From: a virus
Taxonomy: Duplodnaviria; Caudoviricetes
Direction: 5' to 3' (one strand)
Virus record (IMG/VR): IMGVR_UViG_3300033417_000032
Location: 1-37,456 of that record
Length of the DNA: 37,456 nt
Shown here: positions 1-37,456 of the stretch, piece after piece
Position numbering within the stretch: position 1 is the stretch's first letter
Layout: each line of letters opens with the position of its first letter
Position numbers and translations under genes: made by a program
Notes under the pieces: model-generated
Seen by the model: only the letters and a program-made list of their open reading frames with translations
Databases searched by the model: none
Told to the model about the DNA's origin: nothing

Positions 1-523
1 CCCTGACGGGCAGATCATTGACGGGCACCTGAGAGTTAAGGCGGCAAAATTCCTGAAGCTGAAAGAGGTTCCGGTGGCCGTAAACGGGCATTGGACACCA
101 CAGCAGATCAAGGCATTCAGGATATCGGTCAACAAGACGGCCGAGTGGGCAGAATGGGATAACGAACTCCTGAAGCTGGAGTTAGAGGAACTGGAGCAGG
201 ATCACTTTGACCTGCTGTCGACCGGTTTCAATGCCACCGAGATTAACAAGATCATGGACTCCCTGAGTTTTGACGGGGGTGACGGCGCGGGGGGTGAAAA
301 CCCAGATGCCGCCTTTGATGGGGAAGATACAAGCCACGTCAAAATGATCCAGTTGTTTTATGACGAAGAGACAGAGGCCAATTTCCGGGGGATGGTGCAG
401 TGGCTGGACGCAAGATTCAGCACTGGGAACATCTCAGATACAGTATTCAGTGCGCTTCAAAAATGCGTAGCGATTCTGGAGTCACAAGATGCAGGAAAGG
501 CCGGAGTCAAAGCCGAAGGTTAA
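1..523 (+). CDS. ParB N-terminal (ParBc/Srx-like) domain protein, 3' part; the 5' part is at 37319-37456
   Basis: The frame is open from nt 2: PDGQIIDGHLRVKAAKFLKLKEVPV...AFRISVNKTAEWAEWDNELL. This has the ParB box GHxR and the 'N+..E.A.WD.ELL' signature of phage ParB-like proteins, then an acidic linker and a short beta-alpha-alpha C-terminus. Confidence 0.88.
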   Translation, partial: PDGQIIDGHLRVKAAKFLKLKEVPVAVNGHWTPQQIKAFRISVNKTAEWAEWDNELLKLELEELEQDHFDLLSTGFNATEINKIMDSLSFDGGDGAGGENPDAAFDGEDTSHVKMIQLFYDEETEANFRGMVQWLDARFSTGNISDTVFSALQKCVAILESQDAGKAGVKAEG

Positions 524-1319
524 AACCATTTACGTTAAACCCGTGATGTCGAAGGAAAAGGCCCTTTCGATGATCGGAACTTTTTACCCTGAACACACAA
601 TACAGCAGTTGGTAACGGAAGATGCTGACGTCTTTAACGAGGAGGATGGTCAGCCTTTGATAGTCTTCCGAAAGCAAATAGTCGGCAAAGAACTGGCTAA
701 AAAAGCGTGGGAATCCCTCCGGGTGGCGGCAACCCTGAGCGAGAACCGTGGTAATGCAGCTGATGGGAGTAGCGGTTACGTCAGAAACAAGACGCGCCGC
801 TATAAACCCGTCCACAGTGGAATTATTGGGTATTACGACCGTTATATTCGGATCCCATATTGCCGGCAGACCGCATTCAATGAGAAGCAGCTTGATAAAT
901 TTAAAGCGGCATATCCATACATCAAGATGATAAACGACCTTTTTAAGACGACTGTGACAGAGAGGTATAAAAACCAGCTCGAAATAATACAGAATACGCA
1001 CCCTGACTTTTATATCCATGACACCGTTTTCACAACGGTTACTGTAAACAAAAACTACAGGACGGCACTTCATGTCGATAAGGGAGACTTCAAAAACGGA
1101 TTTGGAAATCTGGGCGTGCTCTCTGCTGGAAGGTACAAAGGAGCCTTCACTTGTATGCCGAGGTTTGCTATTGGCGTTGATGTTCGCAGTCGTGATATTG
1201 CCTGTTTTGATGTTCATGAAGTCCACGGTAACACTGAATTTGTCGGGTCGAGATTCGAGCGCATCTCTGTTGTCTGCTATTACAGAGAAAATATGTACAA
1301 GTGTGGAAGTGCATCCTAA
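489..1319 (+). CDS. TET/JBP-family 2-oxoglutarate/Fe(II) dioxygenase (5-methylpyrimidine hydroxylase)
   Basis: FTTVTVNKNYRTALHVDKGD (HxD), FDVHEVHGNT (distal His) and ERISVVCYYRENM (2OG-binding Arg) match the TET/JBP double-stranded beta-helix. The gene sits between ParB and a glycosyltransferase. Confidence 0.88.
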   Translation: MQERPESKPKVKTIYVKPVMSKEKALSMIGTFYPEHTIQQLVTEDADVFNEEDGQPLIVFRKQIVGKELAKKAWESLRVAATLSENRGNAADGSSGYVRNKTRRYKPVHSGIIGYYDRYIRIPYCRQTAFNEKQLDKFKAAYPYIKMINDLFKTTVTERYKNQLEIIQNTHPDFYIHDTVFTTVTVNKNYRTALHVDKGDFKNGFGNLGVLSAGRYKGAFTCMPRFAIGVDVRSRDIACFDVHEVHGNTEFVGSRFERISVVCYYRENMYKCGSAS

Positions 1320-1366
1320 GAACTGGCACGAGCTAAAAACCGCAAGCGAGGGGAGAGTCTTTACTG

Positions 1367-1606
1367 ATGACGGTGTGGGTAGATGTTAAAAATTGGCTTC
1401 CAGAGCCATATGAGGACGTATTAGTCAGGGTAAAAAGCAAAACTGGGGACGGTTATGATGTCAGGGTTGTTGTCGGTTACTACACTGATGAATTTGAAGG
1501 CGCTGATGAACAGTGGCACCTGCTTGTTCCTGACGGCGAGGAACTCAGCTCAATGTATTTAAAAAACGTCACTCATTGGACATTACTCCCGAGCGGAAAA
1601 ATATGA
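1367..1606 (+). CDS. DUF551-like small phage protein
   Basis: W(V)DVKNWLPE...VTHWTLLP pattern; ATGA overlap with the next gene. Confidence 0.7.
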   Translation: MTVWVDVKNWLPEPYEDVLVRVKSKTGDGYDVRVVVGYYTDEFEGADEQWHLLVPDGEELSSMYLKNVTHWTLLPSGKI

Positions 1607-2349
1607 TCTATCCCATTTTCATTCCAAGCAAAGGCCGACCGAATGGAAAGACATTCAAAATCCTCAAAGCTGAAAACATTCATTCTCGAATCGTGCTTGA
1701 ACCGAATGATATTGAGGCTTACAAAGCAAATCATGGAGGAGAAGCAAGCTATTGCTCGCTGCATGAGCGTGACAATGGCATTGCGTTTGCGCGGAACTTC
1801 ATCCTCAAGACCGCTCAGTCCGAAGGAATTGAATGGTTCTGGTCACTCGATGATGACATTGACGGTTTTACTGAAACGGGACTCGACGGTAAGCCCAAGA
1901 AGATTGCGGCTCGCGAGGCTCTTGAAAAGGCGCAGGATATTATCACAGCAGTTAAGGCGGCTCAGGGGGCAATCAGTTACAGCCAATTCACTCTAAACAA
2001 AAAGAAGCCATACAGAATGAACCGCAGGTGCCTGATTGCCACCCTGAACCATGTTCCCTCTCTTGAAGGCGTCTGGTATGACCCGAAATGCACGCTCAAA
2101 GAGGACATTGATTTCAGCCTACAGATCATGACATCAGGCAGAAAGACCGTCCTGTGCGAGCAGTTGGGCTTCCGGGTTCCGGTTTATGGAACCACAAAGG
2201 GCGGCTGTCATTCACTTTACCAGCTCCCGAATATCGAAAAGCAGATGTCACAGTACCTGATGGAAAAATGGGGTCGCGGGCTGGTAACGGCTTACCTCAA
2301 AGATTCCAACCGCTATGACGTCAAGATAAACTGGAAGAAATTCGACTGA
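1603..2349 (+). CDS. TET-associated (TAGT/GREB1-like) GT-A fold glycosyltransferase
   Basis: YPIFIPSKGR N-terminus, WFWSLDDDI (DxD) and KEDIDFSLQ motifs. ATG 1603 overlaps the upstream stop (ATGA). Confidence 0.82.
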   Translation: MIYPIFIPSKGRPNGKTFKILKAENIHSRIVLEPNDIEAYKANHGGEASYCSLHERDNGIAFARNFILKTAQSEGIEWFWSLDDDIDGFTETGLDGKPKKIAAREALEKAQDIITAVKAAQGAISYSQFTLNKKKPYRMNRRCLIATLNHVPSLEGVWYDPKCTLKEDIDFSLQIMTSGRKTVLCEQLGFRVPVYGTTKGGCHSLYQLPNIEKQMSQYLMEKWGRGLVTAYLKDSNRYDVKINWKKFD

Positions 2350-2365
2350 TGTTCCACGTGAAACA
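2350..2365. promoter_or_regulatory. parS site 1 (TGTTCCACGTGAAACA)
   Basis: Exact match to the bacterial chromosomal parS consensus TGTTNCACGTGAAACA, directly after the glycosyltransferase stop codon. Confidence 0.85.
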
Positions 2366-2379
2366 TTATGGAGATTTGA

Positions 2380-2754
2380 ATGGCTCATACGGAAGTGAAG
2401 ATAGACCTCCCTTGGCCTCCTTCCGTTAATAAGATTTGGTCTGTCTCATCAACCGGGCAGTGGTATTCCACCCCTCAGGCCAAGGAATTCAAGCAGGTGG
2501 CGATCTATTACGCACGATCAAAGGGGTTCAAGTTTGCCTTCCCCAAAGACGTACACCTTGATTTCCACATGCTTGCCTACCCCCCTGACAACCGGAAGCG
2601 CGACCTAGACAACCTTGCCAAAGTCGTCTGTGATGCGCTTCAGGACGCAAGGGTGTACGTTAATGACTCACAGATAAAGCGTATCCACATGGAAATGCTG
2701 GAAGTCAGGAAAGGTGGGATGATAACCGTGACGGTTAAACGAATTGAACCCTGA
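2380..2754 (+). CDS. rusA: RusA-family Holliday junction resolvase
   Basis: LPWPPSVN, PPDNRKRDLDNLAKVVCDALQ and NDSQI motifs. Confidence 0.92.
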   Translation: MAHTEVKIDLPWPPSVNKIWSVSSTGQWYSTPQAKEFKQVAIYYARSKGFKFAFPKDVHLDFHMLAYPPDNRKRDLDNLAKVVCDALQDARVYVNDSQIKRIHMEMLEVRKGGMITVTVKRIEP

Positions 2755-2756
2755 TA

Positions 2757-2772
2757 TGTTTCACGTGAAACA
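2757..2772. promoter_or_regulatory. parS site 2 (perfect palindrome TGTTTCACGTGAAACA)
   Basis: Perfect 16-bp parS palindrome (18 bp with the flanking A/T), intergenic. Confidence 0.88.
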
Positions 2773-2791
2773 TTCTCAGGAACGGACTTGA

Positions 2792-2807
2792 TGTTTCACG
2801 TGAAACA
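2792..2807. promoter_or_regulatory. parS site 3 (perfect palindrome TGTTTCACGTGAAACA)
   Basis: Second perfect copy, starting 35 bp after site 2 and upstream of the endolysin RBS. Confidence 0.88.
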
Positions 2808-2827
2808 TTCAAAAGGAGGGGTTCCAG

Positions 2828-3412
2828 ATGGCAGATTTTGATAAAGCAATCCTGACCATCCTAAGGCATGAAGGAAAACTGTCAAATGACGCCAATGACC
2901 CCGGCGGAATCACCAATTTCGGGATCAGTTTGCGTTTTTTAATGCAAACTGGCGATTTAGACCTCGATGGCTGGCGTGACGGCGACATAAACCATGATAA
3001 GGAGGTGAATGCAAAGGACGTGCGGTCAATGACCCAAAAACAGGCTATCGCGCTGTATCACGATTATTTCTGGAATAAAAACGCATACGCAAAGATAGGC
3101 GACCAATTCTGTGCCACTAAGATATTCGACCTGTCAGTCAATATGGGGTCGTATGCCGCGAACAGGGTCGCCCAGCACGCCGTCCGCTCGGCAATAGGGT
3201 TGGTTATCTCAGACGACGGCATTATCGGGAACAAATCACTGACCGCTCTGAATATGTGCCACCCATCTGTACTGATGGCGGCATTGAAGTCAGAGGCAGC
3301 GGGATATTACCGATCAATCCGGTACCGGGGGTCACAGGATTTTCTGAAAGGATGGTTAAACAGGGCTTACGATGATTGTGCAGAACAAGGGGAAACGGAT
3401 GAATCTTTCTGA
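2828..3412 (+). CDS. Endolysin, glycoside hydrolase family 108 with C-terminal peptidoglycan-binding region
   Basis: HEGKLSNDANDPGGITNFGIS, DGIIGNKSL and FLKGWLNR motifs; strong RBS AAGGAGG. Confidence 0.9.
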   Translation: MADFDKAILTILRHEGKLSNDANDPGGITNFGISLRFLMQTGDLDLDGWRDGDINHDKEVNAKDVRSMTQKQAIALYHDYFWNKNAYAKIGDQFCATKIFDLSVNMGSYAANRVAQHAVRSAIGLVISDDGIIGNKSLTALNMCHPSVLMAALKSEAAGYYRSIRYRGSQDFLKGWLNRAYDDCAEQGETDESF

Positions 3413-6402: not shown

Positions 6403-7959
6403 ATGAACCTTCCGTCAACGATTGAAGAATATAAACAGGTCGCGGAACACATAGCAAACTCACCACCGGATGAGTGCTATTTACTGACTCGCGAGTTGAT
6501 CAGGCGCGACCTGTTTTTTCTGATGCGCTATGGAATAGGAAGAAAAGACATGGAGCATCCGTGGTTAATTGCAAGATGCAAGGAGGTTCAGAATGATCCA
6601 GACGACCATTTGGATTTATGGGCGCGTGAGCATTATAAATCAAGTATCATTACGTTTGGACTGACCATTCAGGATATCCTTGCAAGCCACGGTGATGATC
6701 CACTTGAGAAGTGGGAAGGAATAGAGCCGACATTTGCGATATTTAGCCACACAAGGCCAATATCCAAAGGATTCCTTAGTCAAATAAAAAGAGAGTTTGA
6801 GAGTAACCAGTTCTTAAAAAAATTCTTCCCTGATGTTGTGTGGGAAAATCCCGGTAAAGATTCTCCCCGCTGGTCTGAGGACGGCGGTTTGATTATGAAG
6901 CGCACGCGATCTAATCCAAAGGAAAGCACTGTAGAGGCTTGGGGTCTTGTTGAAGGACAGCCTACCAGTAAGCATTTTGACGTACAGATATACGACGACA
7001 TTATCACGTTAGAGTCTGTGCGTTCACCAGACATGCTTCGCAAAACGCTCGAATCATGGGAAATGTCTATTAACCTTGGTGCCGGCAAAGTAAGAAGGCG
7101 TCATATTGGAACCCGTTACCATTTTAATGACACCTACCGTGAGATCATGAAAAGGAAGGCAGCAATACCCCGCATTTATCCGGGAACAAAGGACGGTACT
7201 TTTGAAGGTGAGCCAGTCCTTAAAACAAAGCAGTGGATGATTGAGCGTTATAAATTGCTCGGTCAGTACACGTTCTCTACTCAGATTCTCCAGAACCCGA
7301 TTGCTGACTCAAAGCAGACACTGAAAAAAGATTGGATAAAATTCTACGAAGGCGATGTAAGCCATAATTGCAATAAATACCTGATTGTTGACCCAGCCTG
7401 TGAGAAAAAGAAATCAAGCGATTACACAGCAGCAATGGTCATTGGCGTTGGTTCTGACCAAAAATATAGACTGCTTGATGTCGTGCGGGATAAATTGAAT
7501 CTGTCAGAGCGCGGTAAGATGGTATTCAATTTGCACAGGAAATGGCAACCTCTCGGTGTTGGATATGAAAAATACGGAATGCAAGCTGATATTGAATACC
7601 TTAAAGAACTGATGAAACGTGAGAATTATTATTTTGAAATAACAGAACTCGGTGGAAACATACCGAAGATAGACAGAATCAGACGATTGATTCCTTCATT
7701 TGAACACGGAAGATGGTTATTCCCTGAATCGGTTTATCGGACAAATTATCAGGGAAAAACAGAAGACCTTATTGATATTTACATAAATGAGGAATTTCTG
7801 GCTTTCCCGGTTTCAGTGCACGATGACATGCTTGACTGTCAGGCAAGGATAGTCGACCCCGAATTGAATGTAATTTTTCCAAGGGCCAAACACAATGATG
7901 AAAACGACAGATATAAGCAACGAAAAGGGGTTAGCCATATCAGTCCGTGGGCAGTCTGA
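6403..7959 (+). CDS. terL: Terminase large subunit
   Basis: Deviant Walker A (WAREHYKSS), Walker B (QIYDDI), motif IGTRYHFND, and nuclease motifs IVDPA, SDYTA and HDDMLD. Confidence 0.93.
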   Translation: MNLPSTIEEYKQVAEHIANSPPDECYLLTRELIRRDLFFLMRYGIGRKDMEHPWLIARCKEVQNDPDDHLDLWAREHYKSSIITFGLTIQDILASHGDDPLEKWEGIEPTFAIFSHTRPISKGFLSQIKREFESNQFLKKFFPDVVWENPGKDSPRWSEDGGLIMKRTRSNPKESTVEAWGLVEGQPTSKHFDVQIYDDIITLESVRSPDMLRKTLESWEMSINLGAGKVRRRHIGTRYHFNDTYREIMKRKAAIPRIYPGTKDGTFEGEPVLKTKQWMIERYKLLGQYTFSTQILQNPIADSKQTLKKDWIKFYEGDVSHNCNKYLIVDPACEKKKSSDYTAAMVIGVGSDQKYRLLDVVRDKLNLSERGKMVFNLHRKWQPLGVGYEKYGMQADIEYLKELMKRENYYFEITELGGNIPKIDRIRRLIPSFEHGRWLFPESVYRTNYQGKTEDLIDIYINEEFLAFPVSVHDDMLDCQARIVDPELNVIFPRAKHNDENDRYKQRKGVSHISPWAV

Positions 7960-12934: not shown

Positions 12935-14425
12935 ATGGATGTTAAACGGATAATGGAAACAAAAATGATAATTTCAGGAACTGAGCTTTATCACAAATGC
13001 CTTGAAGTTTTACAGAAGCCTCGCCCTACCCGCCTTGAGTTAGACAAAGTATTTCACGACTTAAACCTTATGCTTCAAACTTCATTTACTGAAGATGATG
13101 AAAATATCGCCACCCTTTGGTTCTCAATAGGTACCTGCCTGAATAAAATGGGCCGTACTGTAATGGCTTTATCATGCTTTGAAGAAGCACTTAAAACGAA
13201 ACCAGATTTTATCGAGGCAATAAATAATATCGGGTACGTTTACAAGAAATTGAATCATCATCAAAGAGCGTTGGAGAATTTTAAAAAGGTTATCGATTTA
13301 ATAGAATCAAAACCAAACTCCGACATTTATGATTCAAAAACCAAATCAGAATTTTATACTAATTATGGTTCTATGTTTGTATGCAACGGAACCCCTGAAA
13401 AAGCGATTGAGATATTCAATAAAGGCGATGTATTGAATCCTGAAAACCTCCAGAATAAATACAATAAAGGTTTAGCACAGCTTGAAACCGGAGATTATGA
13501 AAACGGTTTTATTGGTTATGACCTTGGAGACAGGAAAGAAAAAACAAGCGCAAGAAATTACACAATTGATAACCTTCCATACTGGGACGGAACTCCCGGA
13601 AAAAATGTCGTTGTAATTGGCGAGCAGGGAATTGGTGATGAATTGATGTTTGGAACAATTATTCCAGACCTTATGAAAGACTGCAATGTCGTTATTGATG
13701 CGCACCCAAGGCTAGCAGATATGTTTCGCAGAAGTTTCCCAACGATTGATGTCTATGGCACGAGGAAGTCTCCAAATTATGGATGGGGTAGTCGTTATAA
13801 ATTTGATGCAAAAGTCCTTATTGGCTCCCTTGCTCAATTTTACAGGAAGAATGAGGGAGACTTCCCAAAGGTTCCATATCTTGCAGTTAATGAACAATAT
13901 AACGAGAGATACGGAAAAAGACTTTCATTGCTTGGTGAAAAGCCAAAAATAGGAATCAGTTGGCGCGGAGGTACAAAGCAGACCGGTCAAAATAACAGGT
14001 ACATTCCACTTGAAGAATGGCTTCCTATACTTGGAATGGATTGTGATTTTATTAGCCTACAATATGATCATGATATAAAAAAAGATGTCGATGAGTTTTG
14101 CGAAAAAAACAAGGTAATGATACACCACTGGCCAGAAATGCTAGAAGATTATGAGCAAACAGCAGCACTTGTGAATAACCTTGATTTAATAATATCTGTA
14201 CCGCAAAGCGTAATTCACTTGTCGGGGGTTATTGGAAATACAATCACATGGCAGATATGCCCAGTTAAGTCTCTCTGGCAGGGCGGAGTATATGGACATG
14301 ATATGCCATGGTACGCAAATGTAAGCAATATCTGGCAAGGAAAAAATGATATTGGCTGGAAACAAACAATGGAAACAATAAAGGATAAGTTATGCATCTT
14401 ATTACAGATGAATACAGAAAATTAA
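12935..14425 (+). CDS. TPR-repeat protein with C-terminal GT-B (GT9-like) glycosyltransferase domain
   Basis: N-terminal TPRs (EALKTKPDFIEAINNIGYVY); EQGIGDELMF, KIGISWRGG, FISLQY and TAALVNNLDLIISV motifs of TPR-GT proteins. Confidence 0.85.
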   Translation: MDVKRIMETKMIISGTELYHKCLEVLQKPRPTRLELDKVFHDLNLMLQTSFTEDDENIATLWFSIGTCLNKMGRTVMALSCFEEALKTKPDFIEAINNIGYVYKKLNHHQRALENFKKVIDLIESKPNSDIYDSKTKSEFYTNYGSMFVCNGTPEKAIEIFNKGDVLNPENLQNKYNKGLAQLETGDYENGFIGYDLGDRKEKTSARNYTIDNLPYWDGTPGKNVVVIGEQGIGDELMFGTIIPDLMKDCNVVIDAHPRLADMFRRSFPTIDVYGTRKSPNYGWGSRYKFDAKVLIGSLAQFYRKNEGDFPKVPYLAVNEQYNERYGKRLSLLGEKPKIGISWRGGTKQTGQNNRYIPLEEWLPILGMDCDFISLQYDHDIKKDVDEFCEKNKVMIHHWPEMLEDYEQTAALVNNLDLIISVPQSVIHLSGVIGNTITWQICPVKSLWQGGVYGHDMPWYANVSNIWQGKNDIGWKQTMETIKDKLCILLQMNTEN

Positions 14426-14976
14426 ACGAGAACCTCCATAACCATAACCAATACTATGGTTCACACGGCCATTGGTTCGCTGATGAAGTGCTAAGGCTAT
14501 GCAGAAAATTTGATACAACTGACGTTCTTGACTATGGGTGCGGAAAATCAACGCTATCTGATTCTTTACCATTTATTATTAAAAGATACGACCCTGCAAT
14601 ACGTGCTTTTCATGAAGATCCTGACCCTTCTGATATAGTTGTCTGTACAGATGTCCTTGAGCATATTGAGCCTGAATTGCTTGAAAATGTCCTGAAACAT
14701 ATTCAGGCAAAAACAAGAAAATTAGCTTATTTTTCTGTTTGCACTATTCCAGCCGGAAAGAAACTAGAAGATGGCAGAAATGCACATATTTGTTTGAAAT
14801 CAGGCATTGAATGGTTTAACAAACTTTCCGAGTATTTCAATATTATAAATTATGCAAGAGCTGGTGATAATTTCTTTATTCTTTGTTTACATAAAGGAAT
14901 GATCATTAAACGAGAAAGAAACGAACAAGGTGAAAAGGAAAGTCAGTTGCAGGAGGGTTCTTATAATGAGCAATGA
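14392..14976 (+). CDS. Class I SAM-dependent methyltransferase (sugar/small-molecule type)
   Basis: VLDYGCGKS (motif I), YDPA and DIVVCTDVLEHI; no DNA-MTase catalytic motifs. Confidence 0.85.
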   Translation: MHLITDEYRKLNENLHNHNQYYGSHGHWFADEVLRLCRKFDTTDVLDYGCGKSTLSDSLPFIIKRYDPAIRAFHEDPDPSDIVVCTDVLEHIEPELLENVLKHIQAKTRKLAYFSVCTIPAGKKLEDGRNAHICLKSGIEWFNKLSEYFNIINYARAGDNFFILCLHKGMIIKRERNEQGEKESQLQEGSYNEQ

Positions 14977-15658
14977 ACCATTAAGAGTTTTTATTGGATA
15001 TGATTATAGACAGCCTGTCAGTTTTCATGTGCTTGTACAGTCTATTATGAGGCACGCAACAAAGCCTGTTTCGATCACACCAATCATGCTTAACCAGCTT
15101 CCGTTTACCAGAGTCGGTTTAACGCCATTCACATTCTCCCGTTTCCTTACCCCTTGGCTTTGTGATTTCAATGGTTGGGCTTTATTCCTTGATATCGATA
15201 TTGCCCTGAATGACGACATTGCCAAGTTATTTGCCATGAAAGACGACAAATACACGGTAATGGTTTCAAAGAACAAAATCGAGTTTGAATGGGCAAGCGT
15301 CATGCTTTTCAATTGCGAGAAAAACACCATCTTAACCCCTGAATACTGCTCATCGGCTCAGGGAATGCACGGCATTAAATGGTGTGCTCCAGATGAAATT
15401 GGCGACCTCCCGAACGACTGGAATCATCTTGTAGGCTACGACAAGCCCCGTCAGGACGCGAAGTTGATCCATTACACACAAGGTGTGCCCTGTTTCCCGG
15501 AAACGGCAGACTCTGAATATTCAGGCTATTGGATGGACATACACAAGAGCATCAACTCGGCTTTTCCTTGGGTCGAGTTAATGGGCAATTCAAAGCATTC
15601 TCTCAAAGATTTAGAAGGCCGCATTGTTCCGAGATACAAACTGGAGCCGCCACAATGA
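14966..15658 (+). CDS. GT-A glycosyltransferase (GT8-like)
   Basis: RVFIGYD, TPFTFSRFLTPWL, LFLDID (DxD), WASVMLFN, WNHLVGY and LIHYTQG; GGAGG RBS before ATG 14966. Confidence 0.85.
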   Translation: MSNEPLRVFIGYDYRQPVSFHVLVQSIMRHATKPVSITPIMLNQLPFTRVGLTPFTFSRFLTPWLCDFNGWALFLDIDIALNDDIAKLFAMKDDKYTVMVSKNKIEFEWASVMLFNCEKNTILTPEYCSSAQGMHGIKWCAPDEIGDLPNDWNHLVGYDKPRQDAKLIHYTQGVPCFPETADSEYSGYWMDIHKSINSAFPWVELMGNSKHSLKDLEGRIVPRYKLEPPQ

Positions 15659-16146
15659 TTATTCAGGGCAAAGTTTGGGGTCATACGACCCCTTTATTCG
15701 ACATGAACAATGTGGAACTGCACATTGCAGAGGTGAAGAAGGGCGGATATTGCTCAAAACATGCTCATGCCCACAAATACAATCGCTTTATTGTCCTCAA
15801 AGGAAAACTGAGAGTTATCATCTGGAAAGAGTACAATAACAGGACACTGGAAGATATCAGCATTCTCGGCGCTTCACAGGAATGCACTGTCGGGCCAGGT
15901 GATTTCCACAAATTTGAGGCTTTAGAGGATACCACTGTACTTGAAGTATACTGGGTGGAACTCAAGAAAGATGACATTATTCGGAAAGACCACGGGGGAT
16001 TAGTCGATGAGACGAAGGCAATTACTACAAGCGCAGAGTCAGGCGACTACGGTTACGGCTCCGCAAATTGTGGACTCAGAAAAGCCGTCATGCACGACAA
16101 TATCACCCCCTATGCCCACACTCCCTATTTTGGTTCAGACAGTTAA
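15655..16146 (+). CDS. Cupin-domain protein (sugar isomerase-like)
   Basis: KVWG, CSKHAHAHK and VGPGDFHKFEALED cupin motifs; ATGA-coupled to the glycosyltransferase. Confidence 0.8.
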   Translation: MIIQGKVWGHTTPLFDMNNVELHIAEVKKGGYCSKHAHAHKYNRFIVLKGKLRVIIWKEYNNRTLEDISILGASQECTVGPGDFHKFEALEDTTVLEVYWVELKKDDIIRKDHGGLVDETKAITTSAESGDYGYGSANCGLRKAVMHDNITPYAHTPYFGSDS

Positions 16147-26703: not shown

Positions 26704-26898
26704 ATATTTTATCTTTTGTATATATTATTTGTTGAATTGTTTTATTTCGCTTAGGTAAAAACCCTGATTAAATTCTTTATGGAGTACTGGTAAACCCTTA
26801 GATTATAGTATTTCTTTTGAATTTGTAACGCATAAAGTCATCCGTTTGGTGATTAAATGGCATTGGAAACTTTATTATTCGTTAATGGAGTAACTACT

Positions 26899-27582
26899 AT
26901 GGCCAAGTTTAAAGAAGAATTAAACGGATGTAAAATTTTCATCAACTGTAATGATGATGAAGATGAATATTGCCATGATAAGAAAGACGACTGTTGGGAA
27001 AAGGATAGAGATAGAGGCAGGGATCGCGGCAGGAAAGATGATTGCAAGAAGCCGGAACCAGAATGCAAAGAATACCATCACCACCACAAGTGCGAATGCC
27101 CTAAACCTGAATATGCAGAGGTTTATTCGCAGGTAAACCAGACGCTGGCCGCATCACCTGGCCCTAACCAGAAAGGCGGCGTTGCAATGCTTGAAAAAAC
27201 AATCTTTTCCACTTCTGGAATCGATGTTTCTCAGGCCGCTGGAAATGGGAAAATCATTATCAACAAGGCTGGAAAGTATGATGTTTATACCGGCATTTGC
27301 GGTGCGCTTAACCCGATTCAAAGCCCATTGAAAGTATGGACGTTGTCATTGTTCTTGAACGGAGTCATTGTTCCAGCTTCGACATTTGCAAGTATGACTA
27401 TTTCGCCGGAACAGAAGTCTAATCAGGTTGTGGCAGATGTGTTCTTACACTTGGCAAAAGGAGATTACCTTCAGTTGTGCAACACAAGTGATTCAGTAAT
27501 TGAATTGACAGCTCCGACATTGGGAACCTTCGCACAGCCGAACAGTGCGTATCTCAAATTGATCCTGTTAGAAGCTGACTAA
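26899..27582 (+). CDS. Cys/His/charged N-terminus plus BclA-C/C1q-like beta-sandwich protein (moron-like)
   Basis: GGAG RBS; IIINKAGKYDV, LFLNGVIVPAS and LAKGDYLQLCN pattern of BclA-C/TNF-like domains; AT-rich upstream region and its own terminator. Confidence 0.65.
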   Translation: MAKFKEELNGCKIFINCNDDEDEYCHDKKDDCWEKDRDRGRDRGRKDDCKKPEPECKEYHHHHKCECPKPEYAEVYSQVNQTLAASPGPNQKGGVAMLEKTIFSTSGIDVSQAAGNGKIIINKAGKYDVYTGICGALNPIQSPLKVWTLSLFLNGVIVPASTFASMTISPEQKSNQVVADVFLHLAKGDYLQLCNTSDSVIELTAPTLGTFAQPNSAYLKLILLEAD

Positions 27583-28204: not shown

Positions 28205-28393
28205 CTATTCGCAGATTTCAATCACTCTATCGATATCCTGAGGGTTACCCCACATTTCAACCCATATTTCGCGCTGACAGGATTTGCAGCGTGCTCCAAT
28301 AACATCCTCACCATTTGCCCGGTATAAGACGTGCCTGATATTATGGTCAAGCTCATTTTTACATCTAATACATTTTTTTATTATGTGTGTCAT
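28205..28393 (-). CDS. Small zinc-ribbon-like protein
   Basis: CIRC...CKSC; ATGA-coupled. Confidence 0.6.
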   Translation of the reverse strand: MTHIIKKCIRCKNELDHNIRHVLYRANGEDVIGARCKSCQREIWVEMWGNPQDIDRVIEICE

Positions 28394-28890
28394 CGTACTG
28401 TAATCGTTCCATGCCCTTCGTTGTCAGTGGAGTTTCCATCCATCTCAACGTGCGTGGTCGCCACAGAGGGGGAGTCACCAGCACGCTCGCCACGCAACCA
28501 CATCTCAAGATAGCGCGTCACGCACAATCCCTGACCCGGATTGATAGTGATAGCATCAAAGGCATTGACCTCTTTGCCAGCAACGTTGAGTTTGATCTGA
28601 TACTGACCCCTAACCTGCACCTGAAACGTGTTGTAAAAACACATTTGATGCTGGCTGTTAACCGCCGTCCATTCCTTCATCTTGATCCGGGTTGTCGGCG
28701 CAATCGCTGTCGCCGTAATCCGACTCATCATCAGTGCAGTATTTTTTTTTTCGTCGTCAGACAGTGCCCAAGTTGTTGTTGTGGTTTTAGATATGCCCCC
28801 TTTGGTGCCGGGAGACACATTAACCACGGGTTTTGCAATGGCGATGCCGGCAACACATGACAACAAAAGTGCGAGTTTGTATCTTTTCAT
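28390..28890 (-). CDS. Secreted beta-sandwich protein A (paralog of 29362-29850)
   Basis: Sec signal peptide MKRYKLALLLSCVAGIAIA; two Cys in the mature part. Confidence 0.75.
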   Translation of the reverse strand: MKRYKLALLLSCVAGIAIAKPVVNVSPGTKGGISKTTTTTWALSDDEKKNTALMMSRITATAIAPTTRIKMKEWTAVNSQHQMCFYNTFQVQVRGQYQIKLNVAGKEVNAFDAITINPGQGLCVTRYLEMWLRGERAGDSPSVATTHVEMDGNSTDNEGHGTITVR

Positions 28891-29361: not shown

Positions 29362-29850
29362 TTATCTCACAAAAATATATGCGTCCGAATGGATCTCTTT
29401 TTTGCCAGCCAAGTATGTCGTTCCGCTTGTACTGGCGGAGTATCTATAATTTCCAGCACTCGGGAACGATACCTGCCTGTAAAGCTCTTTTGTTACGCAG
29501 GTGCGGTTCTTATTTGGTATTACGATATGTTCGCTTACCACGGTCTGCTGCCCGCCAATATCCAGCGTAAACACATAATCAGCCTCAGTCGTCAACAGGG
29601 TGCTGAAGCATACAGTGTGGCTACTGCGTGCCATTACAGGCTTATTGACGGACGCATTGACGTTATACGCCGCAGCACTGACATCGGCAGTAGCGGTCAT
29701 ACGCAGAGACTTGATCTCAGCATCGGTCAGGGCGGTGGACTCAATCCTGCTGTAGGACACGCCTGCCAGACCGGGGGAGGATTTAATCGTTGGCTCCGCA
29801 TGGGCCGACATACAGGTAATCAAACAGACAGGCCATATCAACCGCTTCAT
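29362..29850 (-). CDS. Secreted beta-sandwich protein B (paralog of 28390-28890)
   Basis: Signal peptide ending in AHA; colinear similarity to protein A. Confidence 0.75.
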   Translation of the reverse strand: MKRLIWPVCLITCMSAHAEPTIKSSPGLAGVSYSRIESTALTDAEIKSLRMTATADVSAAAYNVNASVNKPVMARSSHTVCFSTLLTTEADYVFTLDIGGQQTVVSEHIVIPNKNRTCVTKELYRQVSFPSAGNYRYSASTSGTTYLAGKKEIHSDAYIFVR

Positions 29851-34856: not shown

Positions 34857-35357
34857 CTATGCGCTGATGCGTTGGTAAGATTTCTGTTTGACAGACACGC
34901 TGCCATGCTTCTCGCGGATGTCGTCCATTGAATAGCTTCCCTTGGAGCGGCTTTTCCAACCGGCGGGGCGGAAATTCCACATCATCTTTTTTGGTGCCCA
35001 TTTGAAGCCAGCGCCCTTGAGGGTCTCACGGTGCGGTCTTGTGTCTCCTGACACCCAAATCCATGAGCCACAGATTTCAATGTCAAGGCCAAGCCCTATG
35101 ATCGCGTTAAGGGCGGCATTTAACTCATCCCCATATTCACCAGCTTCAAAGCCGTCCTCAGAGAGGATGCTGCCTTGGACATAATCCTGAATGGCGGCCC
35201 AAGCAAGATTGACCATTTTCATCATTTCGGTGCCAGCGGGGTTCTTATCGGGGTGGAATTTTGAGCATGCAACACGGTATGCGCGTTTGATCTGGTCAAA
35301 GCTCACATTCGAAGGAAGTCCGAATATCTTAAGAGCGTCAGAATGGCTTATTTTCAT
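34857..35357 (-). CDS. J-domain (DnaJ-like) protein
   Basis: ALKIFGL...IKRAYR...KFHPDKNP...MKMVNLAW with an intact HPD, plus a C-terminal IEICGSWIWVSG...GFKWAPKK domain. Confidence 0.9.
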   Translation of the reverse strand: MKISHSDALKIFGLPSNVSFDQIKRAYRVACSKFHPDKNPAGTEMMKMVNLAWAAIQDYVQGSILSEDGFEAGEYGDELNAALNAIIGLGLDIEICGSWIWVSGDTRPHRETLKGAGFKWAPKKMMWNFRPAGWKSRSKGSYSMDDIREKHGSVSVKQKSYQRISA

Positions 35358-37318: not shown

Positions 37319-37456
37319 ATGGATTCTATTAAAGCAGTTACCTTCGAATATCGCGATCCTAATACACTCATCTCATACGCCAGAAATCCGAGAAAGAATG
37401 ATCACCTTGTCGAGAAGTTTGCCTCGCAGATCAAAGAATTTGGGATGCCGGTTCCG
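37319..37456 (+). CDS. ParB-domain protein, 5' part (continues at window start)
   Basis: MDSIKAVTFEYRDPNTLISYARNPRKNDHLVEKFASQIKEFGMPVP is a ParBc N-terminus (Y..NPR, I.EFG..P) and runs off the end. Confidence 0.85.
   Translation, partial: MDSIKAVTFEYRDPNTLISYARNPRKNDHLVEKFASQIKEFGMPVP

Follow-up and report, generated by a model that had tools for sequence, protein, structure and literature searches.

The virus record IMGVR_UViG_3300033417_000032 (Duplodnaviria; Caudoviricetes), from a soil phage, is a single contig of 37,456 nt, which was analysed over its whole length and is referred to below as the window. It opens with genes for a ParB-like protein, a TET/JBP dioxygenase of the 5mYOX family, a small DUF551 protein and a TAGT DNA glycosyltransferase, followed by a parS site, rusA, two further parS sites and an endolysin gene. 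The sites beginning at 2350, 2757 and 2792 are those which we take to be parS, by the chromosomal consensus. The initial annotation had proposed that a ParB clamp loaded at these sites carries the modifying enzymes along the phage DNA in cis. We consider it likely, with a probability of about 0.75, that two independent features adjoin here: a ParB-activated TET/JBP and TAGT cassette, probably weakened by an early stop codon, and host-type parS sites, which would load the ParB of the host. Neither kind is new, as ParB-dependent thymine-oxidase/glycosyltransferase cassettes and phages with host-type parS have both been described, and the locus adds a further example of each. New details are a natural early stop that cuts the TET tail short and a variable insert which, in a small clade, is shorter than in any other homolog measured. 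The features are as follows.

37319..37456, plus strand: first 46 codons (5′ part) of the gene for the ParB-like activator, running on over an 11-nt gap into position 1
1..523, plus strand: rest (3′ part) of the gene for the ParB-like activator; whole protein of 223 aa; PHROG 620, E 8e-28
489..1319, plus strand: TET/JBP (5mYOX) dioxygenase, 276 aa; PF12851, E 5e-19; HxD...H...R present
1317..1319, plus strand: early TAA stop of the TET open reading frame (ORF); same codon in a separately named assembly (locus L222) and in the X1 contig
1320..1367, plus strand: 15 untranslated in-frame codons homologous to the conserved TET tail, then TGA; TGATG overlap with the DUF551 start
1367..1606, plus strand: DUF551 small protein, between TET and TAGT; profile search
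1603..2349, plus strand: TAGT (GT-A fold) DNA glycosyltransferase; PF20691, E 2e-20; TGA stop at 2347-2349
2350..2365, no strand: parS site 1, TGTTCCACGTGAAACA, one mismatch from a palindrome; consensus match
2380..2754, plus strand: RusA Holliday-junction resolvase; PF05866
2757..2772, no strand: parS site 2, perfect palindrome; consensus match
2792..2807, no strand: parS site 3, perfect palindrome, 20 nt upstream of the endolysin start; consensus match
2828..3412, plus strand: GH108 endolysin, first gene of the lysis/packaging block; profile search

The parS sites and the ParB-like, TET/JBP and TAGT genes named in the initial annotation are real: the genes are supported by the PHROG 620, PF12851 and PF20691 matches, and the genome contains six strand-matches to parS, against a mean of 0.06 in 100 shuffled sequences, none of which reached six. 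No further parS with up to three mismatches was found elsewhere in the genome. As had been described, the first site starts at the very base after the TAGT stop, and the other two follow the end of rusA. The tight packing of the ParB, TET and TAGT genes stands in so far as the ParB/TET and DUF551/TAGT ORFs overlap, and is to be corrected in that the DUF551 gene separates TET from TAGT; likewise, the three sites do adjoin the cassette, but rather than simply ending an operon they flank rusA at the boundary to the lysis and packaging genes. Translation of TAGT likely begins at ATG 1603, in an ATGA overlap, the longest ORF beginning at 1576.

The ParB-like gene is split by the ends of the contig, as it starts at 37319 and is not complete within 1..523. 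Contigs in all three public runs (two samples, one of them possibly the source) join the end of the record to its start over the same 11-nt gap, and locus L222, identical across 3,415 nt, covers the end-start junction; the genome map is therefore circular, of ~37,467 nt. The CheckV label for the record is linear, 82% complete.

The sequence, the domain layout, the truncation and the co-occurrence of genes and sites are all computed. Modelling of the ParB-like protein with AlphaFold2 from a 61-row alignment (mean pLDDT 87.5) predicts a ParB-N fold up to about residue 137, a disordered linker at 138-160, and then a short helical C-terminal part. In Foldseek, the model matches ~110-160 columns of ParB, Noc and PadC chains, and a GxxRxxA-type motif together with N23, P24, R25, G58 and R61 is invariant across the 61 proteins. 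The linker, of 23 residues with seven D/E and no K/R, occupies in the model the place of the helix-turn-helix (HTH) domain HTH_ParB (PF17762), which was not found in the genome; neither was the ParA ATPase (PF13614), and the ParA-binding motif (L/F/I)G(K/R)G(L/F/I) (PMC12704722) is not present in the protein. This is consequently not a canonical ParABS system, having no HTH parS-binding domain, no ParA and no ParA-binding motif. Family searches for HTH_ParB, ParA-type ATPase, tyrosine integrase, resolvase and C5 methyltransferase gave no match in the genome, with controls positive in 9-14 of 14 genomes. Co-folding of ParB with TET yielded a median of 0.25 against a mark of 0.32, and was counted neither for nor against.

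That a ParB-like protein works with TET, as the initial annotation had surmised, agrees with the report of O'Toole et al. (PNAS 2026, PMC13229309) that ParB turns on T oxidation by its cognate 5mYOX, in vivo as well as in vitro; the statement that ParB and TET are joined in no described system is thereby outdated. In that study, the best pairs oxidised 25-35% of T in the E. coli genome, and lambda and phiX174 DNA were substrates as well; mutation of NTP-binding residues did not markedly impair activation, no stable complex was detected, and the 5mYOX-associated ParB was without a DNA-binding domain. Truncation of the enzyme at the last conserved Cys dramatically lowered its activity, and the variable insert was essential. 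The authors raise a KorB-like clamp as a possibility, with native cofactors possibly missing from the assay, and refer to Iyer et al. 2013 for the proposal that ParB directs modification to loci.

Judged from its sequence, the phage cassette fits the ParB-dependent thymine dioxygenases of 5mYOX clade C1 (5mYOX176/ParB176, 5mYOX182; PMC13229309). As in that clade, the ParB-like gene lies directly upstream of TET/JBP, its product consists of an N-terminal nucleotide-binding domain and a short C-terminal domain without a DNA-binding domain, and there is no C5 methyltransferase. The phage TET and ParB-like proteins are 44% and 29% identical, respectively, to their counterparts in L175, which is given as the contig of 5mYOX182, and the C-terminal motif of the ParB-like protein, compared by eye, is of the ‘SHVKMxQLF’ type seen for ParB171/172. 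Unlike the members of clade C1, the phage TET is stopped early and is without most of the C-terminal extension; its insert has 19 residues by the present measure, while the paper gives 26-52 by its own boundaries; its partner is a TAGT glycosyltransferase; and three parS sites lie near the cassette, while the accessible parts of the paper report parS for no phage.

The catalytic residues H195, D197, H246 and R258 of TET are invariant in 100 sequences. At the position of the TAA (1317-1319), homologs carry a sense codon and read on, and the 15 codons past it remain homologous to the TET tail up to the TGA overlapping the DUF551 start, which suggests that this TGA is the former TET stop. Only four residues follow the last conserved Cys in the phage TET, as opposed to at least 13 in 153 other loci and 116 other proteins, and the lost tail contains an E kept in 99/99 homologs and a K kept in 92/99. 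The gene thus descends from the 5mYOX family, with its C-terminal extension encoded in the DNA yet cut off in this allele. Because a similar C-terminal truncation sharply cut the activity of a tested homolog, the activity of the allele is probably reduced or nil in this phage lineage.

Recoding of TAA was ruled out: of the 27 ORFs checked, 16 end in TAA, and a continuation into homologous sequence was seen for the TET frame only. The TAA is unlikely to be an assembly error, given the identity of L222 over 3,415 nt and the X1 contig, which shows no other letters; L222 and X1 may share a source population, and X3 hardly covers the stop.

The segment corresponding to the variable insert measures 19 residues in the phage TET and in six close homologs (P0002-P0006, P0047), as compared with at least 33 (median 46) in 97 others. 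Since the insert is essential in the tested enzymes, the intact members of this short-insert clade are natural minimal variants. The stop and the minimal insert touch the two elements found essential by O'Toole et al. (PMC13229309), which makes the intact close homologs good test enzymes for ParB activation of 5mYOX.

In TAGT, the R...DDD...ED motif (R64, D83-85, D168, D170) is invariant in 53 sequences; no relative with a solved structure was found by sequence. Because of the PF20691 match and the GT-A motif, the enzyme is predicted to add a sugar to a hydroxymethyl pyrimidine in DNA, in the manner of base J. The phage GT-A DNA glycosyltransferases and trypanosome JGT treated by Pyle et al. 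(bioRxiv 10.1101/2023.12.21.572611) are alike in belonging to the GT-A family, in having the R...DDD...ED motif and in lying beside 5mYOX; those tested differ in acting on 5-hydroxymethylcytosine (5hmC) in methyltransferase-containing pathways, while for the phage TAGT the acceptor, 5-hydroxymethyluracil (5hmU), and the sugar are predictions.

The phage sites are of the chromosomal type, and sites of the same kind were found in three of five bacterial genomes checked. No phage-encoded parS-binding protein was recovered by HTH_ParB/ParA profile search, a small binder of unrecognised type being possible among the unannotated ORFs. In phi29, five parS sites are bound by the host Spo0J, which has been implicated in moving the genome into the prespore (PMC2731898). 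The phage under study, known here from its sequence, resembles phi29 in having several chromosomal-type parS and no parS-binding protein of its own, and differs in being a phage of another type (it has a P22-like portal, a replication initiator and a circular map) and in its host, which is probably a non-sporulating proteobacterium, so that spore entrapment would not apply. The exact parS 16-mer occurs in ~5,700 IMG/VR stretches (an estimate from 2 of 64 parts), compared with two for the reversed control, and a tandem parS pair in ~410; where a family could be found for the neighbours of parS, they were mostly phage genes. The ~5,700 versus two counts indicate that phage use of host ParB is widespread, while in the literature searched it has been worked out only for phi29.

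Several minor observations concern such sites. In loci L003-L082, 16 of 80 ORFs beside IMG/VR parS were terminase-type, in a set picked by hand and without a control, and many of the tandem pairs are found close to the ends of contigs of 11-12 kb, again without a control set. In run X3, one contig matches only the parS2-parS3 stretch (2757-2811), its flanks being unrelated and GC-rich; it is probably a tandem parS of another organism. L691, an otherwise different phage, has a copy of the DnaJ-domain protein encoded at 34857-35357 (minus strand) of the window, divergently from the replication gene; the copy is 50% identical (2854-3339), and one parS (6802-6817) is located in L691 just upstream of a probable portal gene.

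If the cassette and parS formed one system, they would be expected to travel together. We examined TET loci in two collections (the best 80 of 559 and the best 80 of 150 confirmed, plus two earlier loci; the scan of the viral collection covered 25 of 64 parts) and TAGT loci (80 of 219, 79 of them new), dropping from the counts two metagenome loci that are the phage itself; whole records were obtained for 50 of the 80 in each set, chosen mainly by length. Sites were counted by the 14-bp core GTTYCACGTGRAAC, since the strict 16-mer with one or two mismatches misses variants altered at the outer bases. ParB accompanies TET in 77/82 and 73/78 loci of the two collections, and ParB, TET and TAGT are all present in 68 rows (46 clusters), with a core parS inside the locus in only two of the 46 clusters. 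Whole records contained the core in 0/50 of the TET set, 3/50 of the TAGT set and 6/50 of the capsid relatives, and the reversed-pattern controls gave none in any of the three. None of the 50 capsid-relative records contained TET (positive control 5/5). The comparison set beforehand as a check on the initial proposal, namely parS near ParB+TET+TAGT operons versus phages lacking them, showed no enrichment, with the core in 3/32 triple-gene records and in 6/50 TET-less capsid relatives (Fisher p = 1.0), and this largely refutes the proposed association. Conversely, no profile match to ParB, TET or TAGT was found in 139 exact-parS loci or 151 tandem-parS loci, full flanks being present in only 80 of each.

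In L303, the nearest of the capsid relatives that could be read (capsid 70% identical, gene order unchanged ahead of the terminase), a core site lies ~2.1 kb upstream of the terminase match, where the record ends. An endolysin-anchored search returned mostly unrelated phages, with a core site in 1/80 loci and TET in 0/80; the one true relative recovered by it, L618, offers only 118 nt upstream, without parS. The cassette and parS do not go together in other phages, and are therefore most likely independent neighbours. No paper linking phage parS with 5mYOX/TET was found in a literature search that mostly did not extend to subscription journals.

Several points weigh against this conclusion. 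A single parS-type core is present in each of three ParB+TET+TAGT records: L224/L699, the closest cassette that could be read, has it ~5.7 kb off, just after the terminase gene; in L738 it lies ~790 bp past TAGT, two ORFs further on; and in the record of L722 it is ~27 kb from the cassette. The counts leave out the surroundings of the five TET homologs nearest to the phage enzyme (66-69% identical, three of them on 26-39-kb contigs), where the test matters most, and most whole records are fragments. Most TET loci are AT-rich (many of 27-33% GC), and their hosts may have other parS or none. Among the capsid relatives, none of the three that are at least 90% complete has a core site. As for the weakening of the cassette, the published truncation ended at the conserved Cys, and the phage allele retains four residues more.

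According to the reading that we favour, in which ParB-dependent T oxidation is carried over from homologs and the transfer of the sugar, the consequence of the early stop and the use of host ParB are what we infer, TET would oxidise T to 5hmU, T being the presumed substrate because no C5 methyltransferase is encoded (the neighbouring cytosine enzyme, PF00145, was not found in the genome; control positive in 9/14 genomes). By analogy with the homologs, the HTH-less ParB-like protein would switch TET on for double-stranded DNA with no need for parS, and TAGT would cap 5hmU with a sugar, similarly to base J, probably against restriction. The TAA at 1317 removes ~16 residues, and the activity of the cassette is probably low or nil. 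Independently, host ParB-CTP would bind the three phage parS and spread, and the phage circle, itself lacking genes for an integrase, a resolvase or partition, would be positioned or partitioned by the host ParA/SMC acting with host ParB.

The modification licensed by parS in cis that was originally envisaged would have host ParB at parS recruit the phage ParB-like protein with TET/TAGT through N-domain contacts, or the phage protein load itself, and would account for the confinement of post-replicative modification to phage DNA. It could draw on the adjacency of the parts, with the first parS abutting the TAGT stop, on the invariant GxxRxxA-type motif and N23/P24/R25/G58/R61 residues, on the KorB-like clamp and missing cofactors raised by O'Toole et al. 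(PMC13229309), and on the core site in 3/32 triple-gene records, one of them ~790 bp from TAGT. The present evidence nevertheless points away from it, and we regard it as highly improbable. Loading of a ParB-like clamp at parS is not supported, given the absence of an HTH domain from the protein and the homologs whose NTP-site mutants still activate, nor is the sparing of host DNA, given the homologs that modify the E. coli genome as well as lambda and phiX174 DNA (PMC13229309). Host chromosomes bear the same sites (in 3/5 genomes checked), and parS therefore cannot mark self; moreover, parS is not enriched over TET-less relatives, and the three parS have all stayed intact beside a truncated TET allele. 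A narrower version, to which we give very little credence, would confine the mechanism to a small soil-phage clade with the shortened TET insert, in which the HTH-less ParB borrows the parS-loaded host ParB clamp and carries TET and TAGT along the circle, in a manner invisible to E. coli assays.

Two further explanations dispense with the cassette. Host ParB, by spreading across rusA into the first part of the lysis/terminase block, might dampen late expression or affect packaging, since the sites lie on both sides of rusA, with the last one 20 nt short of the endolysin start; core sites are also found 0.85-2.1 kb upstream of the terminase match in the capsid relatives L303 and L349 and ~1.9 kb upstream of the portal match in L338, and the terminase-type ORFs beside IMG/VR parS (16/80, hand-picked, no control) point in the same direction. 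Such a switch is unlikely, as the promoter/terminator scan was at chance level, with one promoter-like site in 1200-3000 versus 2.0 expected, and as the site is placed elsewhere in other relatives, for example downstream of the capsid gene in L334; intergenic gaps being scarce in phage genomes, its placement may mirror only the available space. Alternatively, the sites could be decoys, three strong copies per genome multiplying with replication of a phage devoid of partition genes and titrating host ParB, so as to disturb host segregation or division. The one documented case considered, that of phi29, is of segregation into the prespore (PMC2731898), and we find the decoy role very unlikely.

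Elsewhere, the genome encodes a P22-like portal, capsid, terminase, GH108 endolysin, RusA and a replication initiator. No cultured relative was found, the top terminase matches having only ~21-24% identity, and the replication protein gave no informative plasmid match. Because its capsid relatives (41-61% identity) reside mostly within proteobacterial genomes, the host is predicted to be a proteobacterium, probably a non-sporulating one. Several six-base palindromes are depleted genome-wide (e.g., GAGCTC, 0 vs 5.1 expected; ATGCAT, 1 vs 12.5 expected), which is compatible with past restriction pressure and leaves the activity of the cassette undecided.

After the capsid genes, the region 12935-16146 codes for a TPR-repeat protein, which is kept in capsid relatives, a methyltransferase (PF13489), a GT8-like glycosyltransferase and a cupin, possibly involved in virion-protein glycosylation. 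Two ORFs of like size on the minus strand (28390-28890 and 29362-29850), which match nothing in Pfam or PHROG and whose starts resemble signal peptides, perhaps code for paralogous secreted beta-rich proteins. Finally, a lone plus-strand gene inside a minus-strand block (26857-27582) specifies a product whose N-terminus is charged and rich in Cys and His, and whose C-terminus weakly matches BclA.

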